This document shows positions 4,652 to 43,465 of a stretch of 45,591 bases of DNA, piece by piece. The notes under the pieces are model-generated. The model did not search any database. It worked only from the letters and a program-made list of their open reading frames with translations, and was not told where the DNA came from. Source of the DNA: Malassezia furfur. Taxonomy: Eukaryota. The stretch lies in the NCBI GenBank assembly GCA_052055015.1, contig JBQJIT010000038.1. One strand, written 5' to 3'. A program made the translations under genes and the position numbers. Each line of letters opens with the position of its first letter. The first letter of the stretch is position 1.

Positions 4652-6338
4652 ATGCCGCCGCGCGGGAAGTCGGGACGGGCCGAGCCATCTCGCGCCAACC
4701 GCTTCGCATCATCCACGCAGTTTGATGCACTAGCTGTCGATCAACTGCCGTCCGACACGGACGAAATCGCACAGATCGCCACCGACACCGAGCCACGCAC
4801 GCCCCGCACACGTTCTGCGGCGAAGCGCGCCGCCAAGAGCAAGTCCAGCAGCGGCGCATCCACGCCGCAGGTCAAGGAGGAGGCGACACCGGATGCAGTG
4901 CTCACGCACCGCGTCAAGACGGAGCGCGGGGCGGGCGCAGCCGCTGCGGCGTCGTCGCCTGTCCCCAAAAAACCGGCGGCGCCGGCGCCGACGACCGCGC
5001 CGAATGCGGCCGCCACCAACGCTGCGGCACCGCCCACGCCCTTCACCCAGGCGGGCGACGGCGAGGTGTCGCGCGCGTTCTGGAAAAAAGTGCGCGAGCG
5101 CACCGTCTTCTCGCTGCTGATGATCGCTGGATTTTTGAGTACGTCGCGCGTGCGAAGCTGACCCAGCCATCCTGTTGATGGGCCCGTCGTACATGATTTT
5201 GTTGGTGCTCGTGATCGAGACGCTAGTATACCGCGAAGTGACGGCGCTGTTCAACATCCCGGGCCGCGCGAGCCTCACCGGCTCGACCCGCGCGAGCCAG
5301 AGCGAGGGCGACGAGGAGCTCGATGCCGAGCAGCGCCGCCAGGACAAGCGCCGCCAGGAGGTTTGGAGCAAGACGCTCAGCTGGTACTTTTTTGCGGTGT
5401 GCAACTTTTTCCTGTACGGAGAGTCGCTCATCTACTACTTTAAACACGTTGTGTACGTCGACTCCTTCTTCCTGCAATTCGCGCGCCACCACCGGTTCAT
5501 CTCGTTTATGCTGTACATTTTCGGGTTCATGGCGTTTGTTACGAACCTGCGCCGCCGCTACCTCAAGTACCAGTTCGGCCTGTTCTGCTGGGTGCACATG
5601 TCGCTCTTGCTGATCGTCATGTCGTCGCACTTTATCGTGAACAACATCCTCGAGGGCATGATCTGGTTCTGGATGCCTGCAAGCCTGGTTATCTGCAACG
5701 ACATCTTTGCGTATGTGTGCGGCATGCTGTTTGGCCGCACGCCGCTCATTAGCCTGAGCCCCAAGAAGACGGTCGAGGGTTTCGTCGGTGCGCTGTTCAT
5801 CACCATGGCCTTTGCGTGGTTCTGGGCGGGGATCTTCCAGCGCTTCGACTTTATGGTGTGCCCCGCGGTGAACCTCGGCATGACTGCGTTCAGCAACATC
5901 AGCTGCGACCGGAACCCGGCGTTCTTGTCGCACGAGGCGCAGCTGCCCACGCTCGTGTCCAACGTGCTGTCGGCCGTGATGCGGCGCCCGGTGACTACCT
6001 TCACCTGGTCTCCGTTCCAGTTCCATGCCCTTGTCATGGCCGCATTCGCGAGCCTGGTCGCGCCGTTTGGCGGCTTCTTTGCCAGCGGCTTCAAGCGCGC
6101 GTTCAACATCAAGGACTTTGGCGACAGCATCCCCGGCCACGGTGGTCTCACCGACCGTTTTGACTGCCAGTTCATCATGGGACTGTTCAGCTATGTGTAC
6201 TACTCCTCGCTCATCCGGGAATCGCGGATCACGGTCGGGCATGTGATGCAGATCATCGTGACGCAGATGCCCGTGGAAAAACAGACCGAGCTGCTGCGGG
6301 AGCTCTCACGCTACCTCACCAGCGAAGGCCATATCTAG
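4652..6338 (+). CDS. CDS1: Phosphatidate cytidylyltransferase (CDP-DAG synthase); join(4652..5138,5167..6338), 28-nt intron
   Basis: Signature motifs ICNDIFAY, SPKKTVEGF, SGFKRAFNIKDFGDSIPGHGGLTDRFDCQ. Intron GTACGT...CTGACCCAG 5139-5166 joins ORFs 4622 and 5175 in frame (GFL-T-ILLM). Confidence 0.95.
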
Positions 6339-6630
6339 CGCCTGCCTTTGCCCGTAGCTTGTCACCTGCTGTGCTTTTGTTGTGAAGGGGAAGCTGGAGA
6401 GGCTAGGCGCAAACCAAGGGCCGCCCACGCCTTGCGCGGCGGGGCCACTGGGCCCCGGGGACGCCTCGCGGCCTCGCGGCCTCCACCGGAGTGGCAGCTG
6501 CACGTGGATGCACGGCCCCCGGCCCTGCGTCGCGCTGCAGCGCTCCACCCCCGCTGCGAAGAGGCGCGCCGCTGTTGCCCCGCGCTGCGAAGTTGTGCGT
6601 GTGCTGCCTGCCGAGCCCGTCGCGCACGCG

Positions 6631-9600
6631 ATGCAGAGTGAGAGCGGCACAGCGAGGCTCGAGCCGCAGTGGGCCAACGCCCATCTCAATCTCCCTCAAG
6701 CGCCTGCACCTGAGCGGCGGCATGCGATCGGCCGCGTACCGGTGCCGCCCATCGAGGGCGCGGCTGCCGCGCCGCTGCCGGATCATCTCGCAAGTCTGCC
6801 GTATCTGAGCGACGCGGGGCATGCCGCGCCGGCGCCACCTGCATCGTACACACCTGTGTCAGCGCCTTCGTACGCGACGCGCGCGCCGCCACCGCCGCAC
6901 AGTGCGCCTATCGCGACGCCCGCCGAGCTCGACCGGCGCTTTGGCGACACGTCGAGCAGCACCATACGCACGCTCCGGCGCAATGACTCGGACAGTATCT
7001 CGTACATGCCTTCGTCGTCGTCGATGGACATTTCCGCCTCGCAAATGTCGACGCTCTCATCGACAAGCCGCACCGCCAAGCCATACGCGTCCGACCTGCT
7101 GGGCAACGGCGCACTGTACGATCACTCGTATGCACCTGCATCCGACCTTGCGCGCTCGCGGCAGCCGTCATCCGGCTCGCTCGCGCGCAGCTTCGCGAGC
7201 GAGGAGGAGCCGAAGCTTGCGTCGTCGGCGAACAAGCCGCTTGCGGCCGCCGCGAACCGCGTTGCGGGCACCTTTTCGCGGCTCACACGGCTGCACAAGC
7301 GCCAGACACCGCGTGGCGCACCTTCTGGCGTGCCACACACCGCCGATTCCGACACGCGCTCCGAGCGCGAGGCCGAATGGGGCGCACTGCCGCTCGATGC
7401 AAACACTGCGCTGTCACGCACCGACAGCGGTGATACGTCGGCGACGCGCGCCGTAAGTGAGGCATCTTTCTCGCGGCACACTCGCGGCACCAGTGAGCGG
7501 TCACAGGCGAGCAGCGGTGGGTCTCTCGCACTGCGCGACGCGCCGCAGGCGCCTGTCGGCGACGCGTCGCGTGCGGCGCCGCGCGCGATGGCACCGTCAG
7601 CATCGCGCAGTGACTTGCTCGGGTACGACCACCAGCTGCAGCGCCTCGAGCTGATCGGTCGCGGCGCTTTCGGCGCCGTGTACCGCGCGCGGCACCTACG
7701 CACCAATTCGTTGGTGGCCCTCAAGGTGATCGACCTCGACACGCCCGACGACGACGTGAGCGAGATCCAGCGCGAAGTCGCATTGCTGAGCCAGATGCGC
7801 CAGGCACACACGAAAAACATTGTGCGGTACTGGGGCAGCTGGCTCCAGGGTCCGACGCTGTGCATCCTGATGGATTATGCTGAGGGCGGCAGTGTGCGCA
7901 CCTTGGTACGTCTCCCTTTGCACTCACCCAGATGAAAGCCGGCCCGATCCAAGAGCGGCACCTCGCGGTGATCATGCGCGAGACGCTCGTTGCGCTCGAT
8001 TACATCCATAAAGCTGGCATCATCCACCGTGACATCAAGGCGGCCAACATCCTGGTGACGCGCACAGGGCAGCCGATGCTGTGCGACTTTGGCGTCGCAG
8101 CGTCGTTTGTGCATGGCGGTACGCGCGGCAAACGCACGACGTTTATCGGGACGCCCTACTGGATGGCGCCTGAGGTGATCGCCGAGGGCAAGGCATATGA
8201 CTACAAGGCGGACATTTGGAGCCTTGGTGTGACCGCCTACGAGATCGCCACGGGGAACCCGCCGCATGCCGAGCATGACCAACAGCGTGTGATCGCAATG
8301 ATCCCCAAAAACAAGCCGCCGCGCCTGCCGGACGGGCCGTACTCGGCGGCTTTACGCGAGTTTGTCGCGGGGTGTCTCGACGAGGACCCGCAGGCGCGTC
8401 TTTCTGCCGAGGAGCTGGCGCGCACCAAGTGGGTCCGTGCATACGCCAAGTTGCCCGTCTCTGTGTTGCGCGAGCTTTTGGCACAGTACGCCGCGTGGAC
8501 GCGCGCGGGCGGCGTGCGCACGAGCCTCATCCAGGGCAAGGACGGGCCGCTGGCGCTCCGCTTTGCGGACGAAGAGCCGTCGGTGGTGCCCATTGAGCCC
8601 GAGTGGAAGTTTGAGTCGACCGACTCGGACGACGGGCTGCCGACGCGCGCCGACGATACGCCTCCGGCAGAGCCAGTGCAGGACCACCCGCTCAAGCGGC
8701 TATTTGACGCCGCGGATGCCGAGCCTGTGCCGGCACCGGCGCCAGCGCCAGCGCCAAGCGCGAGCAAACCGGCACCGGGCGCCGCAAGTACGCCTCGCCT
8801 CGCGCCGCCTGCCGCCACGCCGGCACGCGCCGAGCGGCCTGCAGGTTCGGGCTTCACCGGCTCGGGCGCCACGCCGTTCCGCTTTGGCATCGGGAGCCGC
8901 GCCGAGCCACCGGCGGCGCCCACTCCACACCCCATACCTCCTGCCCCCTCCGCGGAGCCACCGCCCGAGCCGACCGATGCAGCGACGCCGTCGGTCGTGT
9001 CGCGCAGCCCGTCGCTCGCGGCAATCGACGAGGCAGAGCACGCCGAGACGCATACGACCCCTAGCACCTCGCCTTTGGAGGCGAGCGAGCCATTTGCGCC
9101 GAGCCTCTCGCAGTCGACCTCGCCCGACGGCGAGGGCGGGAAGAGCGAGGGCGAGTCGCCACGCAGCTCGCCGGCGCTCCGACGCGTCGGCCGCTTCGTG
9201 CCGAGTCGACGCACAGTGCAGCCGCCGGCTCTACGGATGGCCGCCTCCTCCTCGTCGCTCGGCCTGGACGCAAGCCGCGCGGCGGCGGACGCCGAGCGGC
9301 GTACCGACCCAGCGGCTCGGAACGACATCCCTTCGTTTCTCGAAGAGCCTTTTACGGGCTTCCGGCCGCAGGGCGCCATCAGCCGCACGCGCAGCCGCAG
9401 CGGCAGCGCGGCGGACCTGCGCTCGCGTGCGTATGCGCATCAGACGACTCACTCGTTGACGAGCCGCACGCGTGTCGTGCCGATGCAGCCGCTTTTGCGT
9501 CTGCAGCCCGACGCGGAGGGCACCTCGCCGAAAAAAGCGGGGGCCGGAACCACGCCGTCGCCTACAGGGCTCACCGCCTCGGCGTCGCTGTCGGTGCTGG

Positions 9601-9974
9601 GCAAGTCGGACGAAAACGCGCATCTACGAAAGCACCACGGCGGCTCGGATCCTACGACGCTATTGAACCCGCTGATGAGCCCTGCACATCTGCGCAAGAC
9701 GTCGGACCTACCGCTGCCGATCGACGAGGGCGACGCGCCGCGCGCGCCACAGCGCCGCCACGTGCCCGCCTTGCCCGCGCTGGACAAGGATGTGTTTCAT
9801 ACCCCTCCTGCGGCGCTGTTTGACGGTCCTGCATTGCGCCCTCTGGACCTTGCGAACCTAATGAACCGCCAGGAGCTGCACACCGAGCTCATGCAGACGG
9901 TCAACGACCTTGGCGCATGGCTTGATGCCGTCGCCGCGGGGCTCACCACCGTGCTCACGCCGCCGCCACCATAG
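6631..9974 (+). CDS. KIC1: Ste20/GCK-family kinase, Kic1/Nak1-like; join(6631..7905,7932..9974), 26-nt intron
   Basis: IGRGAFGAVY, VALKVIDLDTPDDDVSEIQREVALL, HRDIKAAN, DFG, FIGTPYWMAPEVI, YDYKADIWSLG. Intron GTACGT...CTCACCCAG 7906-7931 gives SVRTL-MKAG. The start codon is tentative. Confidence 0.85.
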
Positions 9975-10115
9975 CCACGTGGTCTGTAACGAATTTCCCG
10001 TTGAGCCAATCACGCGCAACCCATTAGCCGGCAACAGGGAAGCCGCAGGGCCACACGGTCGCTTTTTCCCTACCGAACCCTGTCGGCGGCAACACGGATG
10101 TTTGCGGTAGCGCCG

Positions 10116-12011
<1,896 letters not shown>

Positions 12012-12044
12012 TGTCTCTGGAGTCCGCGAAGAAAGCAGCGGTGT

Positions 12045-12092: not shown

Positions 12093-12993
12093 ATGAACTC
12101 GCTGTACAATCTGGCCTCGCGCCAGACAGCTGCGATCCGCGCCGATGTCGACGCGTACAGCGTCGATCCGGCGCATACATCTGCACGGCGCGCTCAGATC
12201 AATGCGGCCATCACAACGCTCCTCAAAACGGTCGAGGACTACGAAGGCATGGCCAAACGCGAGTTGGTCATTGCGAAGCGCGAGAAGGCACTCCAACGCG
12301 CCGCCGATTTCCGCGCTGAGGTCAATCAGCTCCGTGAGACGCTCGCACGCGCAGACACGAGCGGTGGTGCCCCCGCGCACACGTCGGCCTCCGCGCGGCC
12401 CATGGCACCTGCTATGTCCGCAGCGCGACCCAGGGTAGGTGCACAAACTCACCCAGACCGTCGACATGTCAAATCATGCAGCACCGCCTTCCATGCACAC
12501 CATGGCTTCTGCACGACCAGCGCTACAGGCCTATGCGCAGCCCACGCTGTCCGCACACTACGCGCCGCCCCCAACGCACGCGTCGCCCTACATGTACGGC
12601 GGAGCTGCGCCGCCCGATCCGTTGGCCGCCTACAAGATGCATCAGCCCAACGCACCGCTCAGTTCCGAGTCACCCTACAGCATGCGCGAGAACCATGCGC
12701 TACGTGAGCATTCCTTCATCCAGAACACCGAGGCACAGCTGGACGCCTTTATCGCCCAGGGGCGGTCCGTGCTAGGGAACCTCGTCGAGCAGCGTGGCAT
12801 TCTCAAGGGTACACGCAAGCGGCTGCTCGACGCAGCCAATACGGTGGGATTGAGCCGCGAGCTCATTGGATTCATCGACCGAATTGGTGCGCAGGACCGC
12901 ATCATCTTCGCCGTGGGCGCCGTGTTTACGCTGTTTGCCTTTTGTACGTGACACTGCACTCACACAGTCATGATCTACCGGTGGTTCGGTTAG
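12093..12993 (+). CDS. BOS1: ER-Golgi Qb-SNARE (Bos1/membrin); join(12093..12434,12457..12943,12968..12993)
   Basis: MNSLYNLA N-terminus; REHSFIQNTEAQLDAFIAQGRSVLGNLVEQRGILKGT...NTVGLS SNARE motif; C-terminal TM anchor ending MIYRWFG*; introns of 22 and 24 nt. Confidence 0.9.
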
Positions 12994-13034: not shown

Positions 13035-13981
13035 CTAAAACGAGACGACTTTTTTCGCAGGCTTGCGTGGCTGTGTCGGGGCAGACTTGTGCTGGGTCTG
13101 TGCACGCTTCCGTGCAAGCAAGTGGAATTCGTCATCGTCCGCACCGACGGGGACGTCCTCGGTAGACACCATGCCGACACCACCGGCCTCGACCGAGTGC
13201 GCCGCCGAAGTACGCCGCGGGTCCAACGGACAGTCTTTAGCCAAATGTTCCACTGACTGGCACACCTTGCAGCTGCCACCGTCTGGGTACACGCCACGAC
13301 CCTGGTTCTGGGGGCACTTGGATGCCAGGTGGCCTTTCTGCGTGCAGATGTAACACGTAGCAAACGGCAGCTCGTCGCCATCCTTGGGCGCAGGTTTCCG
13401 GCACTTAGCCAACGTGTGTTCCGTGCTACCACACCGGAAACAGATACCGACCGTGTCCTTGCCCAGCTTGGACGAGGAGACATCCGTCAGCGATGAGCTG
13501 CCTGTTCCGACATTCTCAGGGCAGTCTTTCGCCGAATGTCCAGTCCCACGACACACAAAGCACCGCATGTTGCTCGTACGTTCCTGTGCACGCATTTGCC
13601 GCCGGAACTCGGATTTTTGATCGGCGTCTGGGTCAGTCATAGGCACGTACCCAACCGGGGTCGCTGGTGGCGCCTTGGTGTGTCCTCATCCTTCTTACGC
13701 TTGCCCAGTTTCCCGCGGAGTCCATTTAGATTGTTGACTTGTTGTTCCAGCGCCTTAGCATTCTGCAAGTGCTTTTCCCGCGTCTCGTTCGAGTTGGTTT
13801 TTTTGGCTTTGAGGCGCAGAAGCTTGGCGCGCTTTAACAGCCGTTTGGGATCTTGACTCTGTCCAGGCGCGGCATCTTGAGAGACAGTGGGTGGATTTGT
13901 TTCCGTGGGCTCGTCCGCCAAGGGGACGTCGTGTCCAGAAGGGATGGAGCGACGGCCATCCAGCTTCGTATAGCGAGTCAT
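13035..13981 (-). CDS. CCHC zinc-knuckle protein (ZCCHC9-like, 4 knuckles); complement(join(13035..13627,13651..13981))
   Basis: Knuckles CFVCRGTGHSAKDC, CFRCGSTEHTLAKC, CYICTQKGHLASKC, CKVCQSVEHLAKDC; basic N-terminus; KKVVSF end; 23-nt intron. Confidence 0.85.
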
Positions 13982-14034: not shown

Positions 14035-15488
14035 TTACTCCACTTTTACATGAAACGCACTCACGCGGAGAGGTGTTGCTAACCAGTGCTTCAGAGGGGC
14101 ATCGTTCGCTTCAGCATTGCCAATGGCAACCCCTCCGACCTCAGTTGCACCTGCCGTATCTGAATTGATCACAAGAAAATTTTGAACTCGTTCCTCCTTC
14201 TTTGCATCGTTTAAAGCTCCGCGCAGTTGGCGCTTAGCTTCCTGGTAGGCAGCAATAGGAGCATGGTGAGCAGACAAGGATGCAGGGGGATGCTTGCTTT
14301 CGGCATAGCTTTTATCATACAAAACCATGCTCCCTTCTAACTCCTTTTCCGCCTGGAGAACTTGTAAATACCATGCTCGTGGACATAGCGAGGACCTGTT
14401 TAAGTACAACCAGCTCCGTACCATGAAGATTGTGGCAGTACATCATTTTTGCGTTTGGTGGATGCTCCCATCTTGATACCTCCCAGCAAGTTTTCCATCC
14501 GATGGTTGCGGCGCCAACTAATTGCTGCGTGAGTAGGGAACATACATGCGGCACCTGGTACCGGCTCGACATCGGGCCACGCTGATGACCCAATCTCGAT
14601 GCCGGTTTCCCTTGACACGCGGTGTTCCATCATTTCACGGCTATCAGGAAACGGCGTTGAATTGGCATAGACAGGGCACGAGTGAGTTGGGTCTAGGCCA
14701 GCAATGACTTGGGCACACGTTAATGCTAGCGAATGGTCGGTGTCGGGAAGGGATACAACAACACTCGCCAGAAAGACCGGTTCCAACCAGCGTATGAGCA
14801 ATGCACCCTGGATCCCCAATGTATTCCAAACGCGCAGTTTGTCCGAGCATGACATACTGATGCTCGGAGGCGAATCACGTCGTCCGGGTTTAGTTCGTAG
14901 CAGGATGCCCTCCCGTGTCGCAATGGTCTGCCTGCCACGGAGAAGAGTGGCGCTGTTGTGTTCTGGCACACGTACGGTTCCACCTTTCGAGTCTTGCTGC
15001 TGGTGACGTGCTTGGAGCAGTTCGGTAGATGCCTCTCCGCAAGGTAACGTTGATATGTAAAGGTGGATTTTTGCTTGCGGAAGTAGACGCCATCGTTTAG
15101 GTTCGTCGTGGCTTTCATACACCGGGGTGAAGAGCCGCGGGAGACCATCGATTGTATCTTCTGCGCTGCGAACTTCTGAGACAAGTCGTTCAAGCAGCCA
15201 TGCACGGGTGGATCGCCTCGCGAGCACCTCGGCATGACAGTCGTGTAGTACGTCGCCATAGGGGGAGAGACGGACGTAGGGCGTGCACTTTACGCCAGTC
15301 GCCAATGTCAACGGTACCCACTGGTCGTCTACTTGCAAGACGGTGCCCGCAAGAATGGTCCATTCATTCCTGGGTCAAACATAGACTTACCTTCCGTTGG
15401 AGCGACGTTGTGGTTTGCCTCCTCCACGGGGTAGCGTTGCGTATGCATCGAGACAAGTCCGTGCAACTTGTTCGGCACATGGGGTCAT
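14035..15488 (-). CDS. TAD1: tRNA-specific adenosine-37 deaminase (Tad1/ADAT1); introns 15370-15390, 14525-14545, 14396-14421
   Basis: N-terminus ...GKP..NEWTILAG..LATGVKC; catalytic DCHAEVLARR, YISTLPCG, LRTKPGRRD, MSCSDKL; no dsRBD seen. Confidence 0.9.
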
Positions 15489-15518: not shown

Positions 15519-16706
15519 TTACAATTTCTCAGATTTGGCGTCCGTGCGCGCGTCCAATTTGGTGGCTTTCAGTTGCTCGGCTAGGGCTTCGGTTGCATCG
15601 GGGTTCGATTCGTCTGAATCGCCTTTGCTAGTTGAGGCCGAGTCCTTCGCACTTTCTTGGACTGCACTCCCTGGATCGGACTGGGCATGCAACTCATCGT
15701 AGAGGTTGTCCAGCTCTTCTTCCCAGCCGCACTTTTGGGCAAGCACACGAATAGTGTCATCCACTTTGCCCTGGCAGAACACGTCGCGTGAGTCTTCACT
15801 AAAATCGAAACCGCCACCACCAAGAGGATCAAATCGAGATAGGAAGCCACTAGACCGCGACTCGCCCACACGGTCGAGATTAAAAAGATATCTCGGGCAC
15901 TGAAGGGGCACTTCGTCTATCAGTGACGCGAAGGGATTAACCTGGATCAGGCAATACACATACCACCAACGATGTTCCCATGACAAGTAAAACTTGGGCA
16001 CGGCGGAAGTCCACCAGCCGCTCGAAGAAACGGTCAGGCAAGTTTTCGCCGAAAACTGCATGAGCCACGCCACATACAGACAATGTCCGGCTTGATGCTT
16101 GGCACCTGATCCTTTTTCTGGCACTTGGGCTGCTCACAGCGGGCCACAGATCCGCCGATCACCTTTTCTTTGAGCCAGTCGTCATCCACCTCTGTCTTGC
16201 ATTCGATACAACGCGCTTTGGCGAATGAGCCATGAGCCTCCACCAACCTGTCGGGTGACAGGCCGCCCAAGAGCTCGAGCGTGTCGACTGTGTGAGCCAT
16301 GCATACGTACTATTCTGCGTAAACACCCGCAAGAGCTTTCCTTTCTTCTCAAGCAGGCGGAAGAAGCAGTGCGTCAGCGTGGGTTTGTACCGTGAGCCGT
16401 CGGGATAAAGCTCTTTGTACAACGTGTAAAACGGTTGCGGGTTCTCGCGGAAAAACCCAATGTCGAACAAAGCCTCCGGGTAAGGTAGGTCATACTTGGC
16501 CAAGCTTGCGTACAGCCCCGTTACGGGCGAGCGAAAGTCGGGGATCCCAGCACTAGTGGAGATCCCCGCACCGGCCATAATCAGCACGCGTTGGACTATG
16601 TGAGTGGTCAATCGCACATACCTTTGCCATTCGTGAGCAGCTTAGCCAGTCCCTCTAGCTGGGCTTCCACGCTAGGCGAAACATTCGGCTTCTTGGATGC
16701 CACCAT
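15519..16706 (-). CDS. HST2: NAD-dependent deacetylase, sirtuin class Ib (Hst2/SIRT2); introns 16596-16621, 16288-16310, 16055-16076, 15942-15963
   Basis: [41 protein letters not shown] and MGTSLV-VNPFASL are restored across four 22-26 nt introns. An alternative ATG lies at 16712. Confidence 0.92.
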
Positions 16707-24782: not shown

Positions 24783-24910
24783 ATAGCCACTGTCCCAGGA
24801 TTCCTATACCAAAACAAACAGTCAGTGCTTGTAGGTAAACGTGATCGTGTCATATACAAGTAATTGGATACTGGAGCATCTAATTGTCTGTCTATCTATC
24901 TACACACGTC

Positions 24911-26138: not shown

Positions 26139-29100
26139 CTACGAGGAGCACCGTGCGGTGGCTGCTGCAATGTCATCGACGAACGTCGCAATCCGGTCCT
26201 TGGCCCCAGCTTCGTCAGGGACCGCGTCATGCTCTTGTAGGGTATCCGCATGCACAGGCTCCGCCAAGTCCGTATAAATTCGTAGCTGCTTCTCTTCCAT
26301 CATTGTCGCCAGTGCATAAAGTTCCCGTGCGTCTAGCACCGCATCCAAGCGGGGCGAAAATGCTTTTAGGTAAAGCGCTGGGTAAGTCGAATCCAACGTA
26401 CATTTGTCAAAAGGACAGTGCCGAATGGCCTGGTAAATCAATGCCTTGGCGCGCTGCAACGTCTGATTCGATTCGCGTCGACGCTGCCCGGCTGGATTGG
26501 CAAGGAGATGCATTTCGAATCCGATGGCTAAATGCCACAAAATGGACGAAGCACGCATGACATAGAGTGCTCTGTCAAACAAGCGGCGAATACGATCTGC
26601 ATCGACGTGTCTTTGCATCCGGAGCTCGACCACGATCGCAAGTATCCATGTTTGCTCGGTATTGTACCATCCATCGACAATTTCTTCAGCAGGTTGCAGC
26701 AGAAGGTTCGTCCAAGCACCCATCGTCCCTTTTTGTAAGACGGTCGTTTGCAAAAAGTTCCGCACATGGTTCTCAACGTGCGCATGCTGTTCTTGGAGCG
26801 TCAGCACTTGCAGATGACACGAGTTCTGCGCATTCTCTTGAGCCAGTCGGGTTGTGATCGCGCGCACTTCCCGTGGCCGAAAGGCGGCGTTGGGGCATAC
26901 GTGGCGCAGGGTATACAAGAAACGCTGAAAGGCTGCCGCAGTTTGCTGTTGCGCGCTGCCCTGGGCCGCCGCAAGTACATTGGTGAAAATGGACGCAGGT
27001 ACTGTCAACTCGTCACCGGCTGGAACGTCTTGGAGCAAAAATTCTGCAAGCGCGGTACAAAAGGCGAGCGATGCGAGCTTACGAGCGTATGACTCCGTAT
27101 CGTTGCAAGCGCGTTCGACCTGTTTGCGCAACGTCTGCAGCGTATGCAGTTTCTCGGTGCCTCGCAGCGCCTCTTTCTGGGCCGGAAAGACACGTGCATG
27201 TAAGCTGCTGGGCTCGCCCACAAACGCCAATTGAGCAGCAGCAGCCACTGAGAGCACACGCAGGGTTGTCGTGACATCACCCATGGCCCACTCCATCTCA
27301 GACCAAAGCGCCCATAACAAATGTGCCTCGTACGCATGGCTGTGCGAGGTCGTACATCCGACAGAGCCCAGGACCTGGACGACAACTTTCCGTGCGGCCT
27401 CGACATTGCCCCATGTGCTCAACTCAAGTTGGGCGTACGCATACCATAGCATAATAAGTTGATCGTTGCGTTGCAGCGCGGCACGTAGTACTTTCCGCGC
27501 ACTCTTAGGATTACCTGCAGCAGCACACACCATGGCATGTGGCAATGCAATCATACTCGCGAGGTCCTTGTAACCTGCTGCGCTCAGGCGCTGTTCAACA
27601 TGTACCAGAATACGTTCTGCAATTTGTGCCGTTTTCATTGTAAGCCTAGGCAGTACACAAAACCACCGCCCACGCGGATCCTGCGAGGTGCGTGGAAAAA
27701 AGGTATCGGGGGTAAGTGGCACATTTTGCACGGATAATGGGTGTGCATTGTCGGATTGCAGCCACGGTTCCTGCGACCACATCTCCGACGGCACAGTAAA
27801 GTGCTCCATGTCCGGCCATACGGTTGGCCGCTGTCTGAATTCGTTGTCCACTGGGAGAAAGGTCTGACCGAACAGCAGCGATGCGGAGAACCAATGAGAA
27901 GGCATACCCACGTATGCGAACAGTGCATCGGCGACCCGGATCGTCGAAGCCAGTACGTTCGAGCTAGGTTCGACCATGAACATGCGGAGATCATCAAAGA
28001 GCACGTAGGAGAACGGGTCGACCGACATGCCAGGGAGGTCGTCCTCGAACCGCCAAGGCGAGGCATGCTCGGCCGCATTTAGCTCAGTCCGTTGCCATGC
28101 CACCATTTCCTGGTTGCCGAGGGTTTCGCCACCGTCAGGCTGCTCTTGGGGAAGTGTGCTGGCATTCTGCAAGTATAGGGACAGCTGCCGTACCACGTTT
28201 TGATCATGGTTGAGATGAAACCCGTCGTAGGGAAGTGTGTCCCCCACTCGCGCATGCTCTGCATCCCACCAGGCCCCAAAGATCTCTGTGATGTGCTCAA
28301 ACTTGAGGTGGGGATGGCGCCCGTTCTCTAACACCCCCAAGTGAAGTTCTAAGAGTCCTTGTAGGATCCCATAGGCTCGTTCTTGGTACCCTGCGCTGCG
28401 CAAAGTTGAGCAGAGCTCGCTTACAATGTGCAGCTGGAACGCATGCACGATGTCCAAATCGGCTGCAAACATGGTTTGTTGTGGTGCTGCGAGAGCCTCT
28501 TCAAATATGCCGAGCATGTCGTCAAGGGCAAATGACGCCCAGTCGCTTTTGCGAAAGTGGACATACAGCCACCACAAGCGACAGTATTCGCGAAGCGAAG
28601 CATCCCTGCGACCCACATACTCTTCGAGCACATTTCGCCAGGCGCGATTCAGTTTTTCGCTCGTCCAAAGGCCGACATTAGCCGCTAGAAGGAGTCGTCC
28701 CAGCACCAATGGCATTGCCCCCTTGTTGTGCTCTGATGCCTCTTCCGCACGGTCCAAGACCGCCATCTGCATACGCGCCACACTCGACTCTTCTGCACGC
28801 GAGAGTGGTGTAGTCGGGTCGGCGTGCACCATAAGTGCTTGGAGTTCGGCGAGGTCGAACCATGCCCGAATGTCACTAGGGTTTTGCTGAGTGCGTTCGT
28901 GGAGCTTGCGGCTTAATGCTTGGACAGAATCTTGTGCAAAAACAGGTGCGTCTGTGAGCTTTCCCCTAGATTTGGGCGTCTTTGTCGTACGGTACGGGTC
29001 GCGATAAGCCTGGAGCGTGGATGCTTCTTTGGGGCGTTCCAACTCGACATAGGCAGCCTCGTCGTGCGACGGCGAGCCAGGCACAGGTGGAGGAGCTTGA

Positions 29101-29739: not shown

Positions 29740-34272
<4,533 letters not shown>

Positions 34273-34348: not shown

Positions 34349-36371
34349 ATGGCTCGTTGGCCGACGTACCACCTGCACATCTGTGAATTTGTTGGAGACC
34401 AAGGCACTCCGAGGTTTCCTCACAAGCTCTTCGCAAGCCCACAGACGACACTCGCAACCCCCGGGGCACCGCCGTCCGAGCACCCCGCCGATCTCGACCA
34501 ACGACTCGGGCCGATCGAGGTCCACTTTGTGCGTGTGCGCCGGCGTGCACCCCGGCATCCTATGGAGAATTTAGGTAACGAGACGTACGGTCGATTTCAG
34601 GAGGTAGACACCTTCGAGGTCGAGCCAGCACGCGATGAATGGAGCGACTCCGAGGTGCAGCATGATGTGCGTGTCGCGTTTGGTATCGTGCATCTCTTTC
34701 GCCTGCTAGAAGACGACTTTGACGACGATTCAGTGAGTGGAAAGACCGCCGAACCACCTGAAGAAACCGACGAGGACCCTATCGGGACAATCCTGGGCAT
34801 GGTATCTGTCCCCTCGTCGATTACTGTGTCCTCTCTGCTGGATTTCGTCGAACCTGCGCTGGAAGCAATCCAGCACATGCGCATCGTTCGGTACGTGGTT
34901 CTCTGACACAGACATGTCGATCTCGAGAACAACCTCGTTCTCCTCAAGTTCCGCGACACAGTCGATGCAGAGGAGTTCTACAAGATGTACAACGGCCGGC
35001 CATTTCAAGCGCTCGACGTACGTCTTTCTACTCACCCAGCCCTTGGCGACATGCAAGCTGGTCTACGTCACGGGAGTTACGGCGGCACCGAGCCCTTCGC
35101 TGCCCCACTCCCAACCGCTATTGAGCCACTCGGAGCCTTGGCCAGTAATTACGCCCGCCGACGCCGAGAAGGATGCGTCCCTGCGTGCACTGCTCCCATA
35201 CCAAGTCTCGTCTCCGCTCCGCACTGCTGCATACGAAATTCCGACGTGTCCCGTGTGTCTTGACCGGCTTGATGCCACCGTGTCAGGCCTGATCACCGGT
35301 ATCTGCCAACACACCTTCCATTGCAACTGTTTGCAGCGTTGGACCGACAGCCGCTGCCCAGTGTGCCGGTACACGCAGATTCCGGCAATTGAAGAGAACC
35401 ATGCTTCTTCATCAAATGAGGCTGCTTCACGCGCAACCCACTGTGAGCAGTGCGGCAGCGCGACAGATTTGTGGGTGTGCCTGATTTGTGCGCATGTGGG
35501 ATGTGGCCGGTACAAGCAAGGCCATGCCCGAGAGCATTTTGCCGAGACAGGTCACCTGTACAGCCTCGAGCTTGAGACACAGCGTGTGTGGGACTATGCC
35601 GGGGACGGCTACGTTCATCGCTTGATTCAGAGCAAATCGGATGGCAAACTGGTCGAGCTGCCGAGCGCCAGCAGCGTTGCCGCCGCCACGCCGGAGCAGG
35701 TATGGAACGCGCGCTACCCTGGGGCCGTGCAGGCACGATCTGCTCTGCCTAATACGTCCGCAAGTGCGGATGCCTCGTTACCGTCTCATCCAACCGACAT
35801 GCATCTGCTTGAGGAAAAGATGCACGCGCTCGGGTTGGAGTATTCCAGCATGATCATGTCACAGTTGGACTCCCAGCGTATCTACTACGAGGGCTTGCTT
35901 GCCGTGGCGCGCTCCGAACGGATGCCACGCGAGGAGGCCGAGCAGGTCCGCAGCGAGTACGCGGAGCTTCAGGCCAAGTATCAACAGGGCGAAGCTCGGT
36001 GCGTTGAGCTGCAGAACGAACTGGCGAAAGCGCACGCACAGACCGCGCGCTTCGAGACCCAACTGCGCCGTGCGCTCGAATCTGCGCGCGCGCTCAAGAA
36101 GGAACGCGATGAGGAGAAGAGCGTCTCAGATGGACTCTACAAGCACATCCAACAATTGCAAGAGGAACAAAAGGCGCTGCAAACCCGTGTGGCCGACCTG
36201 AGTGAGGAGCTTCGCGACGTCATGTTCTACGTGTCTGCTCGAGACAAGGTACAAGAGATGGACCAGGTTCTTCCCGCCGAAGAGTCACTGCACGGTGGTG
36301 CAGCGTATGTGCCGGACCCGCCGACCAAGCCCAGCAACGTGTCTCGCAAGGCCAAGGGACGTCGTCCATAG
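34349..36371 (+). CDS. ETP1: BRAP2/Etp1 RING + ZnF-UBP E3 ubiquitin ligase; join(34349..34890,34912..35017,35040..36371)
   Basis: BRAP2 domain (LVLLKFR..DA.EFY..YNGRPF), RING EIPTCPVCLDRLD...CQHTFHC.CL..W...RCPVCRY, UBP finger LWVCLIC..VGCGRY..GHA..H...TQRVWDYAGDGYVHRL, coiled coil ending LRDVMFY. Confidence 0.92.
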
Positions 36372-36688
36372 TTACGCACCCTTGCGTGCCTCCTTCTCCT
36401 TCTTCGCGATTTCTTGCTTCCGGATAACACTGGCGATAAACAGACCGATGCACCCGAGGCCTGCCACGAGCAGCAGCGCCGGCAAACGCACGGCCCAGAC
36501 GCGCGCGGGGAAATAGGACTGGATGGATGCATCCGCGGGGAAGAAGGGCTGCGTCAGCGCTTAGAGACATACCAGCACCAGCGCCCAAAGTGTATAATAC
36601 ACAAAGACAAATGTGGCAACAGCCAGGAAAGTGCCACCAATGAGCCGGTCGGACAATGCCTGCGTCAGTCGCGCCCAGCACCTACCAT
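36372..36688 (-). CDS. DPM2: Dolichol-phosphate mannosyltransferase regulatory subunit 2; complement(join(36372..36548,36573..36659,36686..36688))
   Basis: M-ALSDRLIGGTFLAVATFVFVYYTLWALVL-PFF...YFPARVWAVRLPALLL...IGLFIASV plus a basic tail; two TM segments; introns of 26 and 24 nt. Confidence 0.88.
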
Positions 36689-36758: not shown

Positions 36759-37595
36759 ATGAGCAGTGCGCTGCATGCGCGTATTGGGCGCGCCTACGAC
36801 CGCGCCTGTAGCGCACCAGAGAGCAATGAACCAGAACCTGCCGAGGCTGGCGGCTTTTTTCCCGAAGCGGGTGGATTTATTCCAGAAGAGGCGGTCGTAC
36901 CTACGCATGCTCCGGTCCTTTTACTGCACCAGCTGTCGAATGCCCTTGCGCCGTTCCATCTGGATGCCGTGACGCGTGATGAGGTCGAATCACTGCTGAG
37001 GCAGTCTGCAGAATCATCAGAGGATGGGACCACGATCCGCCGCGACGATTTCATTGAGGTGCTCGAAATTGTGCTGGGGGAGCAAGAGGAGCGAGACTCG
37101 GAGGCCAGCGATGCATACGATCCGGCCGCGGATGACGACGACGACTCTGTCTATGAAACAGACGAAGCCAATACGAGGCAAGCACAAAACCGGATGCCAA
37201 AGCGCAAAGATCTCCACGAAAAAGCGCGGTTTTTGTACCGCCTGTTGCTGGAACGCATCCCTCTCGTGCCGTCGTCGGCGCTTGCGACCTACGATAAGAA
37301 CAGGAATGCTCCAACAGAAGTCGACGACCGGCAGCTTGAGACACGCCGAATTGGCCTGGAAGAGCTGCGATACGCTGCACAGTCGCTGGGTGAGCGCACT
37401 ACGACTCACGAGGTACGTGTCATGCTTACCTGCAGCTTGCAGAAATGCTCGAGGAAGCGAGCACATACTTCCGGTCCGATCCTGGGAAAGAACGACCCAA
37501 GGACGCGCGCATTGGGCTACAGGAGTGCGTTACACGGGCTCATTTACAGGTTCACCTACATGACTTACAAGACCGGCATGCTCGACACAATCTGA
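36759..37595 (+). CDS. Hypothetical EF-hand-like protein (possibly Rad33-related); join(36759..37412,37436..37524,37550..37595)
   Basis: GGFF/GGFI repeats, IRRDDFIEV, acidic linker and centrin-like IGLEELRYAAQSLGE...E-LAEMLEEA...IGLQEF after removing 23- and 25-nt introns. Confidence 0.6.
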   Translation: MSSALHARIGRAYDRACSAPESNEPEPAEAGGFFPEAGGFIPEEAVVPTHAPVLLLHQLSNALAPFHLDAVTRDEVESLLRQSAESSEDGTTIRRDDFIEVLEIVLGEQEERDSEASDAYDPAADDDDDSVYETDEANTRQAQNRMPKRKDLHEKARFLYRLLLERIPLVPSSALATYDKNRNAPTEVDDRQLETRRIGLEELRYAAQSLGERTTTHEVRVMLTCSLQKCSRKRAHTSGPILGKNDPRTRALGYRSALHGLIYRFTYMTYKTGMLDTI

Positions 37596-39531: not shown

Positions 39532-39536
39532 TCAAT

Positions 39537-40859
39537 CTATACTGTATATCCACGAGCCTCGAGCGCATCCAGAAGGGCATCAAGCCTGCTCTGCGACCAC
39601 TGCACGCCGCGTTCCAGCAATTCTGCCTGGCCTGGGTGAGTGGGGGCACGTACCGTTGCGATATTCACGAATCTTGGCCAAGATCGAGTCGCGAACGCCG
39701 TCTGTCCCATCCTCTGCAACCCATGGGAGCGCATCGTCCACTTCATGCTGGGTCCGGACAAAGTGCGACCGCCGCATATGGAGGAACTGCTCCAGAGCCT
39801 CGCACGCATTCGCTTGGCGCAGCAACGAAGCAATCTCAGGATCATCAGCGTCTTCCTGGGCCATTTGGTCAGTGAGTATTTGGAGCACCTCGGTGGGTGG
39901 TTCAGCTTGCGCTTTCGACCAGTACACCATCTGAATCTCTCCATCGTTGGGCCGTCGCAGCGCAAGTACCAGCACATCATCTGGGCCGCCAGGCTGGACG
40001 AACCCATACGAGGCAGCCAATTCCTCGTTGCTTTTGGCACCGTAATTGTTAAACACCTGAGCACCAGGTGCCACTGCAGCGCGGGTCAAAAAACACGCTG
40101 CGTGATCCTTGCACTCCCATGTGACCTGCTCCCCGCGGCGGTGATTCAGGCAATCCAAACCGGGTACAAGTATAGGTACCGATTCAGCAGGCGGCGACCA
40201 GCCGGCAATTGATGCAGGAAAGCTTCGACTTCATTAGTATATGCCGTACCTTGTATACACATTCCGCGCCCATCGGCAGTGGGCCAACCATGTCTTTTCA
40301 TCTTGGACTGCAGCGCGAAGCAGCGCGCGCGCAGGGTCTGTGCTGGTTTCGAGGGCGGATGCGAGCCAGCTGCGGAGCCGCTGGGCACTCTCAGCTGTCT
40401 TTTGAAGCTGCAATTGAGCATTGTTGTAAAGAGATGTGCCTTCAAGGAGACCTAGCTCTGCAGGATAATACTCAAGCGGCGTCTCAAAGGTGTTGGGCAA
40501 AATACGCACATACGGCTTGTGTAAGAGGTAGGCGTCCACCTCAGCAAAGTCCTTGCCTTCGTACAACTTGTGGAACACAAGGTACAAGGTAATAAGGTCA
40601 TGCGATTCAAGCTCTTGGGGTATGGGCAATGCCACGATGGATTCTGTGCGGACGCGGCAAAGGTCGGGGTGCACACAGAGGGACTGGGGAATCGTCAGGA
40701 CACGCGTATTGGCTACTAGCCCCTCTTCCGTAAACAATCCCCATCCTGCATTATCGTCTTCCGTTAGCACGTGTACATGCCTTGCGAAAAGTACAGCTTC
40801 CCTGCAAACTGGGCGCCTCCATCTTGCATCCATGCCAGAAACGCTGCATGCTCCTCCAT
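39537..40859 (-). CDS. SET-domain (Rubisco-LSMT/Efm1/Rkm-like) protein lysine methyltransferase; introns 40758-40780 (GC-AG), 40229-40249, 39632-39653
   Basis: FLAWM..GG, GWGLF, PYVRILP...TPL, LLEGTSL, YT-S-RSFP, LVPGLDCLNH, QVFNNYGAKSNEEL..SYGF. Confidence 0.85.
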
Positions 40860-40979
40860 GTCGGCGAGGCGTTTCTTGCGCCTCCACCTGGTTGCCAAGC
40901 CCCCTTTACTAAACGTATCGTCTCCCAGATCCGGATACCGGTGCTCTCGCCTTGGTTGTACTTCGACGCCCCTAGAGAA

Positions 40980-41311
40980 ATGTCTGGAAACAACGTTGCG
41001 CACCTCGGTGCTGCAGATGCGCAGGACCGCAAGAAGATTCGCTCGGTATGTATATCACTAGCATTAACACGCAGCACATTACCGTGGGTCCCGAGTCGTC
41101 CAAGCAGGTTTCGCAGGACCCGACGCTTTTCTCGGAACAGCCTGCGGTCGTCGCGCCGGAGCTGGCACGCGACCAGAGCGCCCCGATCCCCCAGATTGAC
41201 CAGGATGCACAGACGGGTCCTGAAATTGTCGGCGCTGAAGACCCTCGCAATGACTCGGTGCAGAAGAAGCCGTCGTTCTTCGAGCGGATGAAGAGAAAGA
41301 TCCTAAAGTAA
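40980..41311 (+). CDS. Small hydrophilic hypothetical protein, 100 aa; join(40980..41045,41075..41311)
   Basis: AAA-ATG context; 29-nt intron GTATGT...TTAAC.ACGCAG joins MSGNNVAHLG...KKIRS to HITVGPESS...FFERMKRKILK*. Confidence 0.6.
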
Positions 41312-41547
41312 CGCAATCATACGAAAGTCTGCTCTTGCATGGATCGCATCCTGATTCTTTCTATACGAATCTATAATACGAAACACACGCAAGCTAATGT
41401 AGAAACTAGCGGGTTTGTGTATAGGCATTATTACCTTGATTCCGCCACCAATGGCTCCGCAATCGGTGGAGTCGAGCTTTGTCCCACATTTTTGGTCAGC
41501 ACGTGGCCGCGACATTTACGCGTCGGACCGCGTCGCGTGCAACGATC

Positions 41548-42768
41548 ATGTCGGAACCAAGCAAGGACAGTGCTGCGGACCAAGTCAAGGTCCAGCTAGA
41601 CGAAGCAAACCGGTGCTTTGCCCTGAAGAAGTACGATGGAGCTGCAGATATGCTGGCGTCAGCTCTAGAGGAACTGTAGGTGCATTCTTTTGACCCAGAC
41701 GCGACTCGTACGATGAAGATGCGCCTGAACTAGCGCCCGTTCTGCACTTATATGGGCGTGCATTGCTCGAGCACTTTATCAAGGTGGGCGGCGCGCTAGA
41801 AACGGGTGGTGCCGTGGATGCACCATCCTTGAGTGAACCACTGCCTCCCACAGAGAAGTGCGAAGTTGGTGCCGATGATGACGTCACGTCCAAGGCGACG
41901 GGCAAGCGCAAGGCGACCGATGCTGCAGATCAGGCACAGGAAGAGGAAGAAGAAGAAGAGGATGACCTTGCCGTTGCATTCACCGTTCTGGACTTGTCGC
42001 GTGTCATCTTTGAGCGGATTTTGGGCACGTCCGCTTCTCAGCCCGCCTCGTCTAAGGATGCGGCAGCCCGGACAAAGCACGACGTGCACCTTGTTACGCT
42101 GACCGGTGATACGCTCGATGAGCGTGATTTGGTGATTGAACTGGGAGAGGTATACAATGATCTGGGCGATGTGGGGCTCGAGTCTGGTATGTATGCATAC
42201 CTCACACAGAAAACTTTGAGCAAGCCTCAGAAGACTACGCGTCGTCCTTGCGCGTTCTCGCGCCTTTGCTTCTCCCTTACTCGCGCCGTCTCTCAGATGC
42301 GCACCTCCGACTGGGTCTTGCGCTTGAGTTTCATCCCAACAACGAGCGGCGAAGTGAAGCCATCTCTCACATTGAACAAGCGCTGCATGTGCTCCAGAGG
42401 CGCCTAGTGGAACTAGAGAAGGACGAGGTGCCGGCGTTGGAGGGCAAGCTTGTGTCTGAGAGGGACAACCTGGCCGCCATGGACAGCGACCAGCGGAAGC
42501 GCGAGATTCGCGACGTGAAAGAGGTGCTTAAAGATGTGGAACTGAAGGTACGTGTCTATTCACACTCATGCAGGTCGACGAAATGAAGTCCAACCCGGCG
42601 GCGCTGAAAGAGGACGGGAGGCTGTCGAATCCCGAACTGGAAGCGACCATTCGAGAAGCCTTTTTGAATGCTGCCCAGTCGGCTTTGGGCGAAAGCACGA
42701 CCAAGGTGCAGCCGAACCAGCCTGTCAACGACCTGAGCACCCGTGTCAAGAAGAAGAAGAAGATCTGA
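41548..42768 (+). CDS. NASP/Sim3/Hif1 SHNi-TPR histone chaperone; join(41548..41675,41699..42186,42210..42547,42574..42768)
   Basis: FALKKYD.AAD, LAPVLHLYGRALLE, acidic EEEEDDL.VAF.VLDLSR, LGDVGLES-ENFEQA..DY, C-terminal PVNDLS..VKKKKK. Confidence 0.88.
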
Positions 42769-42804
42769 AGTAGTTCCCCAATTAGTCATCCACCCTCTCC
42801 CACC

Positions 42805-43465
42805 ATGGCGACGAACATCACTTTCCACCCCGGCACCGTCACCTATGAGGAGCGTTGCGACCTCCTGAACCAGCAGGGCGCTACAATCTGGCTCACGGGC
42901 CTGTCTGCGTCGGGCAAGTCGACAATCGCTACGGCGCTTGAACAGCACCTGCTGCACTTGAAGAAGTCGGTCTACCGTCTCGATGGTGACAACATTCGCT
43001 TTGGTCTGAACAAGGACCTCGGCTTCTCGCCCAAGGACCGTGAGGAGAACATCCGTCGTATCTCTGAGGTGCGTATTACCGACTCATTTTAGGTGTCGCT
43101 CCTGTTCGCATCGTCGACGGCGCTGACCATCACGTCGTTCATTTCGCCGTACAAGGCTGACCGTGACTTTGCCCGCGAACTGCACGCGAAGCACAACCCG
43201 CCGCTTCCTTTCATTGAGGTGTACGTGGATGCCAGCATTGAGGAGTGCGAGAAGCGCGACCCCAAGGGTCTCTACAAGAAGGCCAAGGCCGGCGAGATCA
43301 AGGGTACGTCAGATGAGCTGACTCTCAGAATTCACCGGCATTTCGGCCCCTTATGAAGCCCCATCCAACCCCGAGATCCACATCGATGCCGACAAGTCGT
43401 CCATCGAGGACAGTGTTGCTCAGATCGTGCGGTACCTGCAGGAAAAGGGCTACCTGAAGGTCTAA
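42805..43465 (+). CDS. MET14: Adenylyl-sulfate (APS) kinase; join(42805..43068,43093..43303,43329..43465)
   Basis: [67 protein letters not shown]; introns of 24 and 25 nt. Confidence 0.97.

Follow-up and report, generated by a model that had tools for sequence, protein, structure and literature searches.

Very short spliceosomal introns have been described in yeasts of the genus Malassezia, and the 45.6-kb stretch of DNA analyzed here, from contig JBQJIT010000038.1 of Malassezia furfur (45,591 nucleotides (nt), hereafter the window), is populated by introns most of which are shorter than 30 nt. In Malassezia sympodialis, 5350 curated introns with a mean length of 30 bp were reported, 99% of them supported by RNA sequencing (RNA-seq) (Zhu et al. 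2017, PMC5389616), in line with the statement in the preliminary description of the window that short introns are already known in this genus; RNA-seq added 2585 supported introns and altered 64% of the protein sequences (PMC5389616). Malassezia genes with 'very short introns' are also mentioned in a review (PMC7426719), and the mean intron lengths of 76-79 nt given for M. globosa by earlier pipelines (PMC4634964) illustrate the annotation problem. M. sympodialis shares with the window both the genus-level group and the tiny-intron phenomenon; the portion of the published account available to us gives the mean and a cumulative plot, and the minimum, the branch layout and the branch-acceptor spacing are absent from that text (PMC5389616). 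A literature search on Malassezia found no text describing a minimum intron length, a branch layout or changes in the spliceosome. Tiny introns are no novelty in Malassezia, are represented in part in public gene models and do not constitute a new type of system; the composition of the 21-nt minimum (16 + 5 nt) and the compression relative to syntenic relatives, both described below, are refinements, not a discovery.

Introns of comparable or smaller size are found in distant eukaryotes. The 15-16-nt introns of Stentor coeruleus resemble those of the window in the GT-AG ends, the narrow range of lengths, the lack of a pyrimidine tract and the position of an A 5 nt from the 3' end (PMC9505925). 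In Stentor, the branch A is nt 10 of 15, A+U makes up 76% of the introns, the branch consensus is weak and the loop measures 10-11 nt (PMC9505925), whereas the window introns have a G+C content of 53%, strong yeast-like donor and branch boxes and a predicted loop of at least 16 nt. According to a 2026 survey, introns below 30 nt occur in Paramecium and other ciliates, microsporidia, dicyemids and myxozoans; the available part of this survey of introns below 30 bp contains no mention of Malassezia, which suggests that the Malassezia case is little known outside Malassezia genomics (PMC13644364). The window appears to share with the other tiny-intron lineages an independent shrinkage to a lineage-specific minimum in a compact genome; these lineages differ from the window in that most are parasites or remnants of endosymbionts and have introns that are rich in A/T, with weak signals at the branch site. 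Chlorarachniophyte nucleomorphs are another lineage with introns shorter than 30 nt. The introns of budding and fission yeasts have a GTATGT donor and a TACTAAC-type branch box and rely little on a pyrimidine tract; the strong donor and branch consensus is shared by the window introns, whereas the yeast introns are several times longer and their branch point is located further from the acceptor.

Introns of the window and their lengths

Judging from sequence, homology and the literature, on which the whole analysis is based, the segments are most probably ordinary U2-dependent GT-AG introns of an M. furfur-like yeast that have been squeezed to the smallest size accepted by the spliceosome. Altogether, 40 introns were traced between positions 5139 and 43328, the same outer limits as in the preliminary description, in a window that contains approximately 28 protein genes tightly packed on both strands. 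Of these introns, 36 are 21-29 nt long and none is shorter than 21 nt, a count that applies to the window and not to the genome. The lengths of the short introns are 21 nt (seven introns), 22 nt (seven), 23 nt (seven), 24 nt (five), 25 nt (two), 26 nt (five) and 27, 28 and 29 nt (one each); the four remaining introns are 42, 45, 162 and 218 nt long. The preliminary description had counted 37 of 43 introns in the range of 21-29 nt, so that the picture is the same and the totals differ slightly, and its claim that none is shorter than 21 nt held for all 40 introns in the independent tracing. The seven 21-nt segments that it listed were all recovered, each with GT..AG on the coding strand, six on the minus strand and one (34891-34911) on the plus strand. 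Thus, most introns are shorter than 30 nt, with a narrow spread and an abrupt lower edge, and the 21-nt floor is real within the window, for 40 introns.

The introns were traced by dynamic programming on motif and codon scores, restricted to short introns, followed by correction by homology; the candidate search demanded a donor-like and a branch-like box, and neither the 5-nt spacing nor the floor was imposed. In parallel, 444 stop-to-stop pieces of at least 60 residues were translated and scanned against Pfam. Two other gene modellers were discarded in favor of the short-intron model combined with homology: one based on the length of open reading frames (ORFs) merged sense with antisense frames, and one allowing long introns merged adjacent genes. 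The introns are as follows, each with the evidence for its junction.

5139-5166, plus strand: 28-nt intron, CDP-diacylglycerol synthase (CTP_transf_1) gene; motif and ORF joining; if retained, stop inside the intron after 7 codons
7906-7931, plus strand: 26-nt intron, protein kinase gene; Pfam Pkinase 2-89 in the upstream and 90-263 in the downstream piece
10144-10188, plus strand: 45-nt first intron, complex I 20-kDa subunit gene; motif and ORF joining; branch box TGCTGAC, 8 nt from the 3' end
10336-10358, plus strand: 23-nt intron, complex I 20-kDa subunit gene; motif and ORF joining
11935-11958, minus strand: 24-nt intron, arginine methyltransferase (PRMT) gene; motif and ORF joining; immediate stop if retained
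12435-12456, plus strand: 22-nt intron, v-SNARE gene; motif and ORF joining
12944-12967, plus strand: 24-nt intron, v-SNARE gene, 8 codons before the stop; motif and ORF joining
13628-13650, minus strand: 23-nt intron, zinc-knuckle protein gene; motif and ORF joining
14396-14421, minus strand: 26-nt intron, Tad1 (tRNA adenosine deaminase) gene; frame change in orthologue tblastn matches
14525-14545, minus strand: 21-nt intron, Tad1 gene, in frame, stop-free; 12 orthologues aligned gap-free across the junction; exactly 7 extra residues at this site in three ORF-called relatives
15370-15390, minus strand: 21-nt intron, Tad1 gene; orthologues gap-free; stop after 1 codon if retained
15942-15963, minus strand: 22-nt intron, sirtuin Hst2 gene; gap-free against M. 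furfur Hst2 (366 amino acids)
16056-16077, minus strand: 22-nt intron, Hst2 gene; Pfam SIR2 81-146 meets 146-178; gap-free against M. furfur Hst2
16288-16310, minus strand: 23-nt intron, Hst2 gene; Pfam SIR2 1-85 meets 81-146; gap-free against M. furfur Hst2
16596-16621, minus strand: 26-nt intron, Hst2 gene; gap-free against M. furfur Hst2
20884-21045, plus strand: 162-nt first intron, RPL7 gene, 8 codons past the ATG; dynamic-programming model and sequence reading; TACTAAC box
21158-21375, plus strand: 218-nt second intron, RPL7 gene; Pfam Ribosomal_L30_N 1-28 meets 28-72
22445-22486, plus strand: 42-nt first intron, Hsp70-family gene; intronless syntenic orthologues with 16-17 of 17 residues identical, gap-free, in 3 of 3 loci
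26378-26401, minus strand: 24-nt intron, NRDE-2 gene, in frame, stop-free; gap-free across the junction in 3 syntenic loci
29816-29842, plus strand: 27-nt first intron, CDC48 gene; indirect, matches in 3 syntenic loci start at residue 21-26, junction at 25.3
32359-32380, minus strand: 22-nt intron, IKS1 kinase gene, C-terminal tail; consensus motif and reading frame
32476-32496, minus strand: 21-nt intron, IKS1 gene, C-terminal tail; motif and reading frame; stop after 6 codons if retained
32861-32881, minus strand: 21-nt intron, IKS1 gene, in frame, stop-free; gap-free in 8 orthologues and 4 of 4 syntenic loci
33158-33179, minus strand: 22-nt intron, IKS1 gene; Pfam Pkinase 94-134 meets 139-259; gap-free in orthologues and syntenic loci
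33556-33578, minus strand: 23-nt intron, IKS1 gene; gap-free in 7 of 8 orthologues and 4 of 4 syntenic loci
33662-33682, minus strand: 21-nt intron, IKS1 gene; gap-free in 8 orthologues and 4 of 4 syntenic loci
34891-34911, plus strand: 21-nt intron, BRAP2-type RING/zf-UBP gene; Pfam BRAP2 profile stops at 42 at the donor and resumes at 48, 5.3 residues past the acceptor; gap-free in 3 syntenic loci
35018-35039, plus strand: 22-nt intron, BRAP2-type gene; gap-free in 4 of 4 syntenic loci with 9-10 of 18 residues identical; BRAP2 profile up to 78
36549-36572, minus strand: 24-nt intron, DPM2 gene; Pfam DPM2 1-27 meets 25-73; same-codon introns in four relatives
36660-36685, minus strand: 26-nt intron immediately after the ATG, DPM2 gene; motif and model
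37413-37435, plus strand: 23-nt intron, conserved gene 36759-37595; gap-free in 3 of 4 syntenic loci
37525-37549, plus strand: 25-nt intron, conserved gene 36759-37595; motif and relaxed model; relatives' matches end nearby
39632-39653, minus strand: 22-nt intron, SET-like gene; gap-free in orthologues and 3 of 4 syntenic loci, the fourth with a 9-residue insert exactly here
40229-40249, minus strand: 21-nt intron, SET-like gene; gap-free in 7 orthologues and 4 of 4 syntenic loci
41046-41074, plus strand: 29-nt intron, small gene; matches in 3 syntenic loci start at residue 67, junction at 66.0
41676-41698, plus strand: 23-nt intron, NASP/SHNi-TPR-like gene; same spot in relatives, 27-nt stop-containing insert (2 loci) and 34-nt GT-AG intron
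42187-42209, plus strand: 23-nt intron, NASP-like gene; same spot, matches break in 2 loci, 27-nt insert in one
42548-42573, plus strand: 26-nt intron, NASP-like gene; same-codon introns in three relatives
43069-43092, plus strand: 24-nt intron, APS kinase gene; Pfam APS_kinase 1-66 meets 68-133; intronless relatives with 18 of 18 residues identical
43304-43328, plus strand: 25-nt intron, APS kinase gene; relatives with an intron at the same spot

Splice signals

All 40 traced introns start with GT and end with AG, as is characteristic of U2-type introns, and display the layout outlined in the preliminary description, with canonical ends, donor, short spacer, branch box and acceptor. A donor of the form GT[AG]NGT, capable of pairing with U1 and U6, is present in 34 of the 36 short introns, and the other two have GTACGG; among the 34 short introns listed first, G1, T2 and G5 are invariant (34/34), T6 is found in 33 of the 34, A3 in 30, and C or T at position 4 in 29. 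The branch box CT[CG]AC is present in 24 of 36, and a T-N-A box with the A at -6 in 29 of 36 (28 by pattern, plus 40229-40249, which ends with AAG), such that, in these 29 short introns, exactly 5 nt follow the putative branch A. The acceptor is YAG in all short introns except one (35/36). The last nine bases typically read CT[C/G]AC-N-CAG, a module that is present in its entirety in 19 of the 36. There is no polypyrimidine tract, as had been noticed previously, because there is no room for one between the branch A and the AG, which are separated by 3 nt in 29 of 36 introns; these three bases are mostly C (T accounts for 14%), and runs of T reach no more than 1-2 nt in 30 of the 36 introns. 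The G+C content of the introns is 53%, compared with 60% for the window. No donor of the U12 type (RTATCCTT; this type is also defined by the branch box TCCTTAAC) was found among the 36 short introns.

Two introns on the minus strand deviate from this pattern: in both 14396-14421 and 40229-40249, the donor is GTACGG, in which the T of position 6 is replaced by G, and the branch boxes are A-rich (CTTAA and CTAAT, respectively). Such introns may represent a minor variant class of splice signals. The first of them escaped the strict pattern search described below, and only removal of these 26 nt opens the Tad1 ORF, to 461 amino acids; the second, with the box TACTAAT and the acceptor AAG, contains two in-frame stops.

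Protein homology across the junctions

Removal of the introns restores both the reading frame and a conserved protein at 28 of the 40 junctions, as indicated by continuity of Pfam profiles, alignment with orthologues without gaps or a syntenic relative with an intron in the corresponding position, and restores the reading frame at the other 12. Homology supports six of the seven 21-nt introns; the exception, 32476-32496, is located, together with 32359-32380, in the unconserved C-terminal tail of IKS1. Pfam profiles run on across nine junctions between neighbouring pieces in different frames, and the spliced products align with orthologues without gaps at two Tad1 introns, the first four IKS1 introns, both SET-like introns and all four Hst2 introns. 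The nearest named protein is the M. furfur sirtuin Hst2, of which 335 of 366 residues are identical to the spliced four-intron model, with equal length and no gaps; the window protein differs from the annotated M. furfur Hst2 by about 8%. The motifs that had been proposed to be rejoined by splicing are indeed restored, namely FTQN-IDT and KPDIV-FFGE in the sirtuin gene (16288-16310 and 16056-16077) and KD-Y-YADSY in the PRMT gene (11935-11958).

Three other placements were considered and rejected. A 60-nt alternative to 40229-40249 would remove residues that are kept by the orthologues, a 26-nt alternative to 16056-16077 is ruled out by the gap-free match with M. furfur Hst2, and orthologue matches pass straight through a possible fourth Tad1 intron at 14043-14064.

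It is barely credible, given these alignments and signals, that the segments are not spliceosomal and instead reflect assembly errors, decaying pseudogenes or cutting of the tRNA or IRE1 type. Errors or decay would not always start with GTAYGT and end with CTSAC-N-CAG on the coding strand, and the sites coincide with codons at which relatives carry GT-AG introns of other lengths. Furthermore, such a reading would require the simultaneous breakage of 20 genes whose products nevertheless align full-length to orthologues.

Introns in syntenic relatives

A metagenome scan with the IKS1 alignment identified nine loci, of which seven (L001-L007; G+C 0.45-0.49) are syntenic with positions 22,000-43,500 of the window, from the Hsp70-family gene to the APS kinase gene. 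The junction finder gave no placement in 4 of 15 cases in these relatives, and a doubtful 43-nt BRAP2 candidate in L003 was not used. For 11 or more window introns, the syntenic relatives lack a corresponding intron, and their coding sequence is gap-free across the junctions. In particular, IKS1 contains six introns in the window and none in the syntenic relatives, with four of the junctions each gap-free in 4 of 4 loci. The sequences are compatible with either loss of these introns in the relatives or gain in the lineage of the window.

Another eight window introns appear to have an intron of a different length at the same place in at least one relative, four of them on indirect signs (29816-29842, 41046-41074, 42187-42209 and 39632-39653). 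The DPM2 intron 36549-36572 is 24 nt long in the window and 25, 34, 49 and 34 nt long at the same codon in four relatives; the third NASP intron (42548-42573) is 26 nt long compared with 28, 28 and 43 nt, again at the same codon; the first NASP intron (41676-41698) is 23 nt long compared with 27, 27 and 34 nt; and the second APS kinase intron (43304-43328) is 25 nt long compared with 40 and about 36 nt. Across the window and L001-L007, the introns at shared positions are always the shortest in the window. At the shared codons, the lengths in the relatives (25-49 nt, compared with 23-26 nt in the window) are often not divisible by three; conservation of the position combined with freedom of the length is the behaviour of introns.

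Pattern matches and points against the interpretation

Both strands of the window and 30 dinucleotide-preserving shuffles were searched for the strict pattern GTNNGY..CTNAY N0-5 YAG. At lengths of up to 30 nt, 43 matches were found, whereas the shuffles gave 11.1 on average and 15 at most; the counts at 21 through 26 nt are 6, 7, 6, 6, 2 and 5, compared with approximately 0.5-0.9 expected per length. Seven matches are shorter than 21 nt and none of these is an intron. Five lie inside introns of 21 or 23 nt and would break the frame (32476-32490, 15 nt; 32861-32877, 17 nt; and three of 19 nt), 32235-32250 (16 nt) covers the stop codon of CDC48, and 30710-30729 (20 nt) is antisense to CDC48. The 20-nt candidate 12704-12723 was also rejected, as part of an out-of-frame path.

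Several observations weigh against the interpretation of the traced segments as compressed U2-type introns with a defined minimum size. The consensus is partly circular because a donor-like and a branch-like box were demanded by the search. Twelve of the 40 introns, including the 21-nt intron 32476-32496, are supported by motif and reading frame. Intron-sized pattern matches that probably occur by chance are present at 8514-8534 (plus strand), 37386-37409 (minus strand) and 43742-43768 (plus strand). Lengths divisible by three are not depleted (13/36). In the syntenic relatives, which have a lower G+C content, the introns are longer and show no clustering at 21-23 nt, so that, at most, the 21-nt edge characterizes the lineage of the window. 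As a counterpoint, the Tad1 intron is read through as exactly seven residues in three ORF-called relatives (82, 60 and 55% identity).

Finally, 14525-14545, 26378-26401 and 32861-32881 are in frame and stop-free, such that retention would leave the protein intact. It is conceivable, if improbable, that some short in-frame segments of this kind are optional or retained coding inserts that inflate the list of introns. This would fit the divisibility of these three segments by three and the presence of the 7 Tad1 residues in the ORF-called proteins of relatives. All three segments, however, have the full donor, branch and acceptor consensus, and orthologues, including intronless ones, lack the residues at the three sites; the 7-residue inserts of the ORF-called proteins (P0002-P0004) are attributable to unspliced ORF calling, and their residues vary in the same way as intron sequence.

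Of the pattern matches that are not counted as introns, 8514-8534 (plus strand) is a 21-nt strict-pattern match within an exon, in the low-complexity C-terminal part of the kinase gene, with the poor donor GTGCGC, in frame and stop-free; it may be due to chance or may be an eighth 21-nt intron. A perfect 24-nt intron-like pattern, 37386-37409 (minus strand), lies 4 nt from the homology-supported intron 37413-37435 (plus strand) and probably arose by chance. Both this match and 43742-43768 (plus strand) are on antisense strands.

A possible lower size limit

Compressed U2-type introns of this kind would be removed by normal splicing through intron definition. The 6-nt donor GTAYGT would pair with U1 and later with U6, and U2 would pair with CTSAC, leaving the branch A bulged; between the donor and the fixed 9-nt end module CTSAC-N-CAG, there would be a variable spacer of at least 6 nt. 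The first AG past the branch, 5 nt downstream, would be chosen as the acceptor by proximity, with no polypyrimidine tract involved. The minimum of 21 nt would then be the sum of two limits, a branch A at nt 16 or later and the 5 nt that follow. We infer that the segments are removed from RNA, that branching takes place at the A at -6 and that the limit is of a steric nature.

In the 36 short introns, the predicted branch A never occurs before nt 16, with a donor-branch spacer of at least 6 nt; counted from the 5' end, it is nt 16 in 8 introns, nt 17 in 8, nt 18 in 8, nt 19 in 3, nt 20 in 1, nt 21 in 5, nt 22 in 2 and nt 23 in 1. The assignment of this A to nt 16 in the preliminary description applies to all seven 21-nt introns, each of which has a CTSAC/CTAAT-type box; given a minimum of nt 16, the smallest lariat loop would be 16 nt. 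In the 23-nt intron 37413-37435, the A is also at nt 16 and is followed by 7 nt, so that the limit would act on the donor-to-branch distance; this intron points to that distance as the limited quantity. The 5-nt tail, common to these introns and those of Stentor, may reflect a minimum that applies generally to the second step of splicing.

We put at slightly less than an even chance the proposal that the 21-nt edge is a hard mechanical limit, consisting of at least 15 nt before the branch A and exactly 5 nt after it, against which the lineage of M. furfur pushed its introns, with relatives remaining at 25-49 nt. The alternative, that the introns are real and the 'sharp floor at 21' is the impression given by a small sample, with a minority of 18-20-nt introns genome-wide and a soft limit, seems to us rather unlikely. 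The sample indeed consists of 40 introns in 28 genes, smaller lariats are physically possible, considering that Stentor splices 15-16-nt introns (PMC9505925), and weak-signal in-frame introns of 15 or 18 nt would evade both the reading-frame test and the pattern search. A soft limit is, however, difficult to reconcile with the absence of introns of 20 nt or less next to seven each at 21, 22 and 23 nt, and with the same cliff in the position of the branch A (none below 16, followed by 8, 8 and 8). In addition, each of the seven sub-21-nt pattern matches lies within a longer intron, on an antisense strand or over a stop codon; introns of at least 21 nt account for all frame breaks of the gene models; the orthologous Tad1 intron corresponds to exactly 7 residues in three relatives at 55-82% identity; and none of the relatives has an intron shorter than 25 nt at a conserved position.

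If the hard mechanical limit is real, the spliceosome would assemble in a geometry unlike that of the human B complex. The latter is estimated to need approximately 52 nt from donor to branch without structural change, and its assembly to fail at 35 nt (PMC6692369), whereas 15 nt are available in the window introns. The preliminary description proposed an adapted spliceosome, and it is plausible that the machinery or the assembly path differs from the human one, considering that 15 nt suffice here in place of about 52 nt; no splicing gene is located within the window. Under a hard limit, these introns would rank as the shortest of all known fungal introns when microsporidia are set aside, or even when they are counted, and a GC-rich fungus that has strong splice signals and can be cultured and transformed would be the best bench model for minimal introns. 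A strict 16-nt loop and 5-nt tail, combined with textbook donor and branch boxes, would provide a clean system for study of the lower size limit.

Longer introns

The four introns longer than 29 nt are either first introns located 8-15 codons past the ATG or the host of a small nucleolar RNA (snoRNA)-like element; those of 42 and 45 nt are first introns about 15 codons past the ATG. All four have a box of the TACTAAC, TGCTAAC or TGCTGAC type located 8-11 nt from the acceptor, not 5. Within the RPL7 intron 21158-21375, there is a box C/D snoRNA-like element (21206-21292, plus strand) that scores 25.6 bits against Rfam snR39 (gathering score 40; E value 0.037), with a good match in the 3' guide and box D region. 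At the gathering score, Rfam gave no matches in the entire window, and a tRNA scan of the entire window was likewise empty. A snoRNA in the RPL7 intron is conserved in fungi, including M. sympodialis (PMC8476143), and the element probably accounts for the 218-nt length of the second RPL7 intron. The longer introns fit the notion that length is retained only where it is useful.

Gene annotation and other features of the window

The preliminary description predicted systematic mis-annotation by default gene finders, and the evidence is divided. ORF-only calls are wrong for Tad1, whereas the public M. furfur Hst2 model matches the four-intron product; similarly, a homology-only annotation of M. 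sympodialis missed thousands of introns, whereas RNA-seq-guided annotation copes with them (PMC5389616). The ORF-called protein P0001 (312 amino acids, 99% identical) stops at the unspliced Tad1 ORF, and P0002-P0004, also ORF-called, read the 21-nt Tad1 intron through as 7 extra residues. These four proteins are a concrete case of contamination of protein collections by tiny introns. Gene callers, protein databases and aligners that disallow introns of about 21 nt truncate, frame-shift or pad proteins. Some aligners score gaps shorter than about 20-21 nt as deletions in their default settings, which would create a spurious floor.

The closest named homologues of the window proteins are Malassezia proteins, as expected of a Malassezia nuclear genome, and the gene spacing is compact. 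The top named match of Tad1 is from Malassezia sp. CBS 17886 (47% identity), and those of IKS1 are from M. yamatoensis (56%) and Malassezia sp. CBS 17886 (50%). Together with the Hst2 match, they assign the DNA to M. furfur in a broad sense or to a near sister species. The modelled coding regions of the convergent CDC48 and IKS1 genes terminate within 3 nt of each other (32241-32244); therefore, either their 3' untranslated regions overlap or the IKS1 tail, in which two introns have motif support, may be mis-modelled.

The G+C fraction ranges from 0.53 to 0.69 across the window, and this G+C-rich DNA has many long antisense frames without stops, such as 29830-32475 (minus strand) opposite CDC48. 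One such frame, 22464-24803 (minus strand), antisense to the Hsp70-family gene, matches the Pfam family PF10712 (NAD-GH) with an E value of 9e-27; presumably, this match reflects a family that is an artefact of Hsp70 antisense frames and does not represent a gene.

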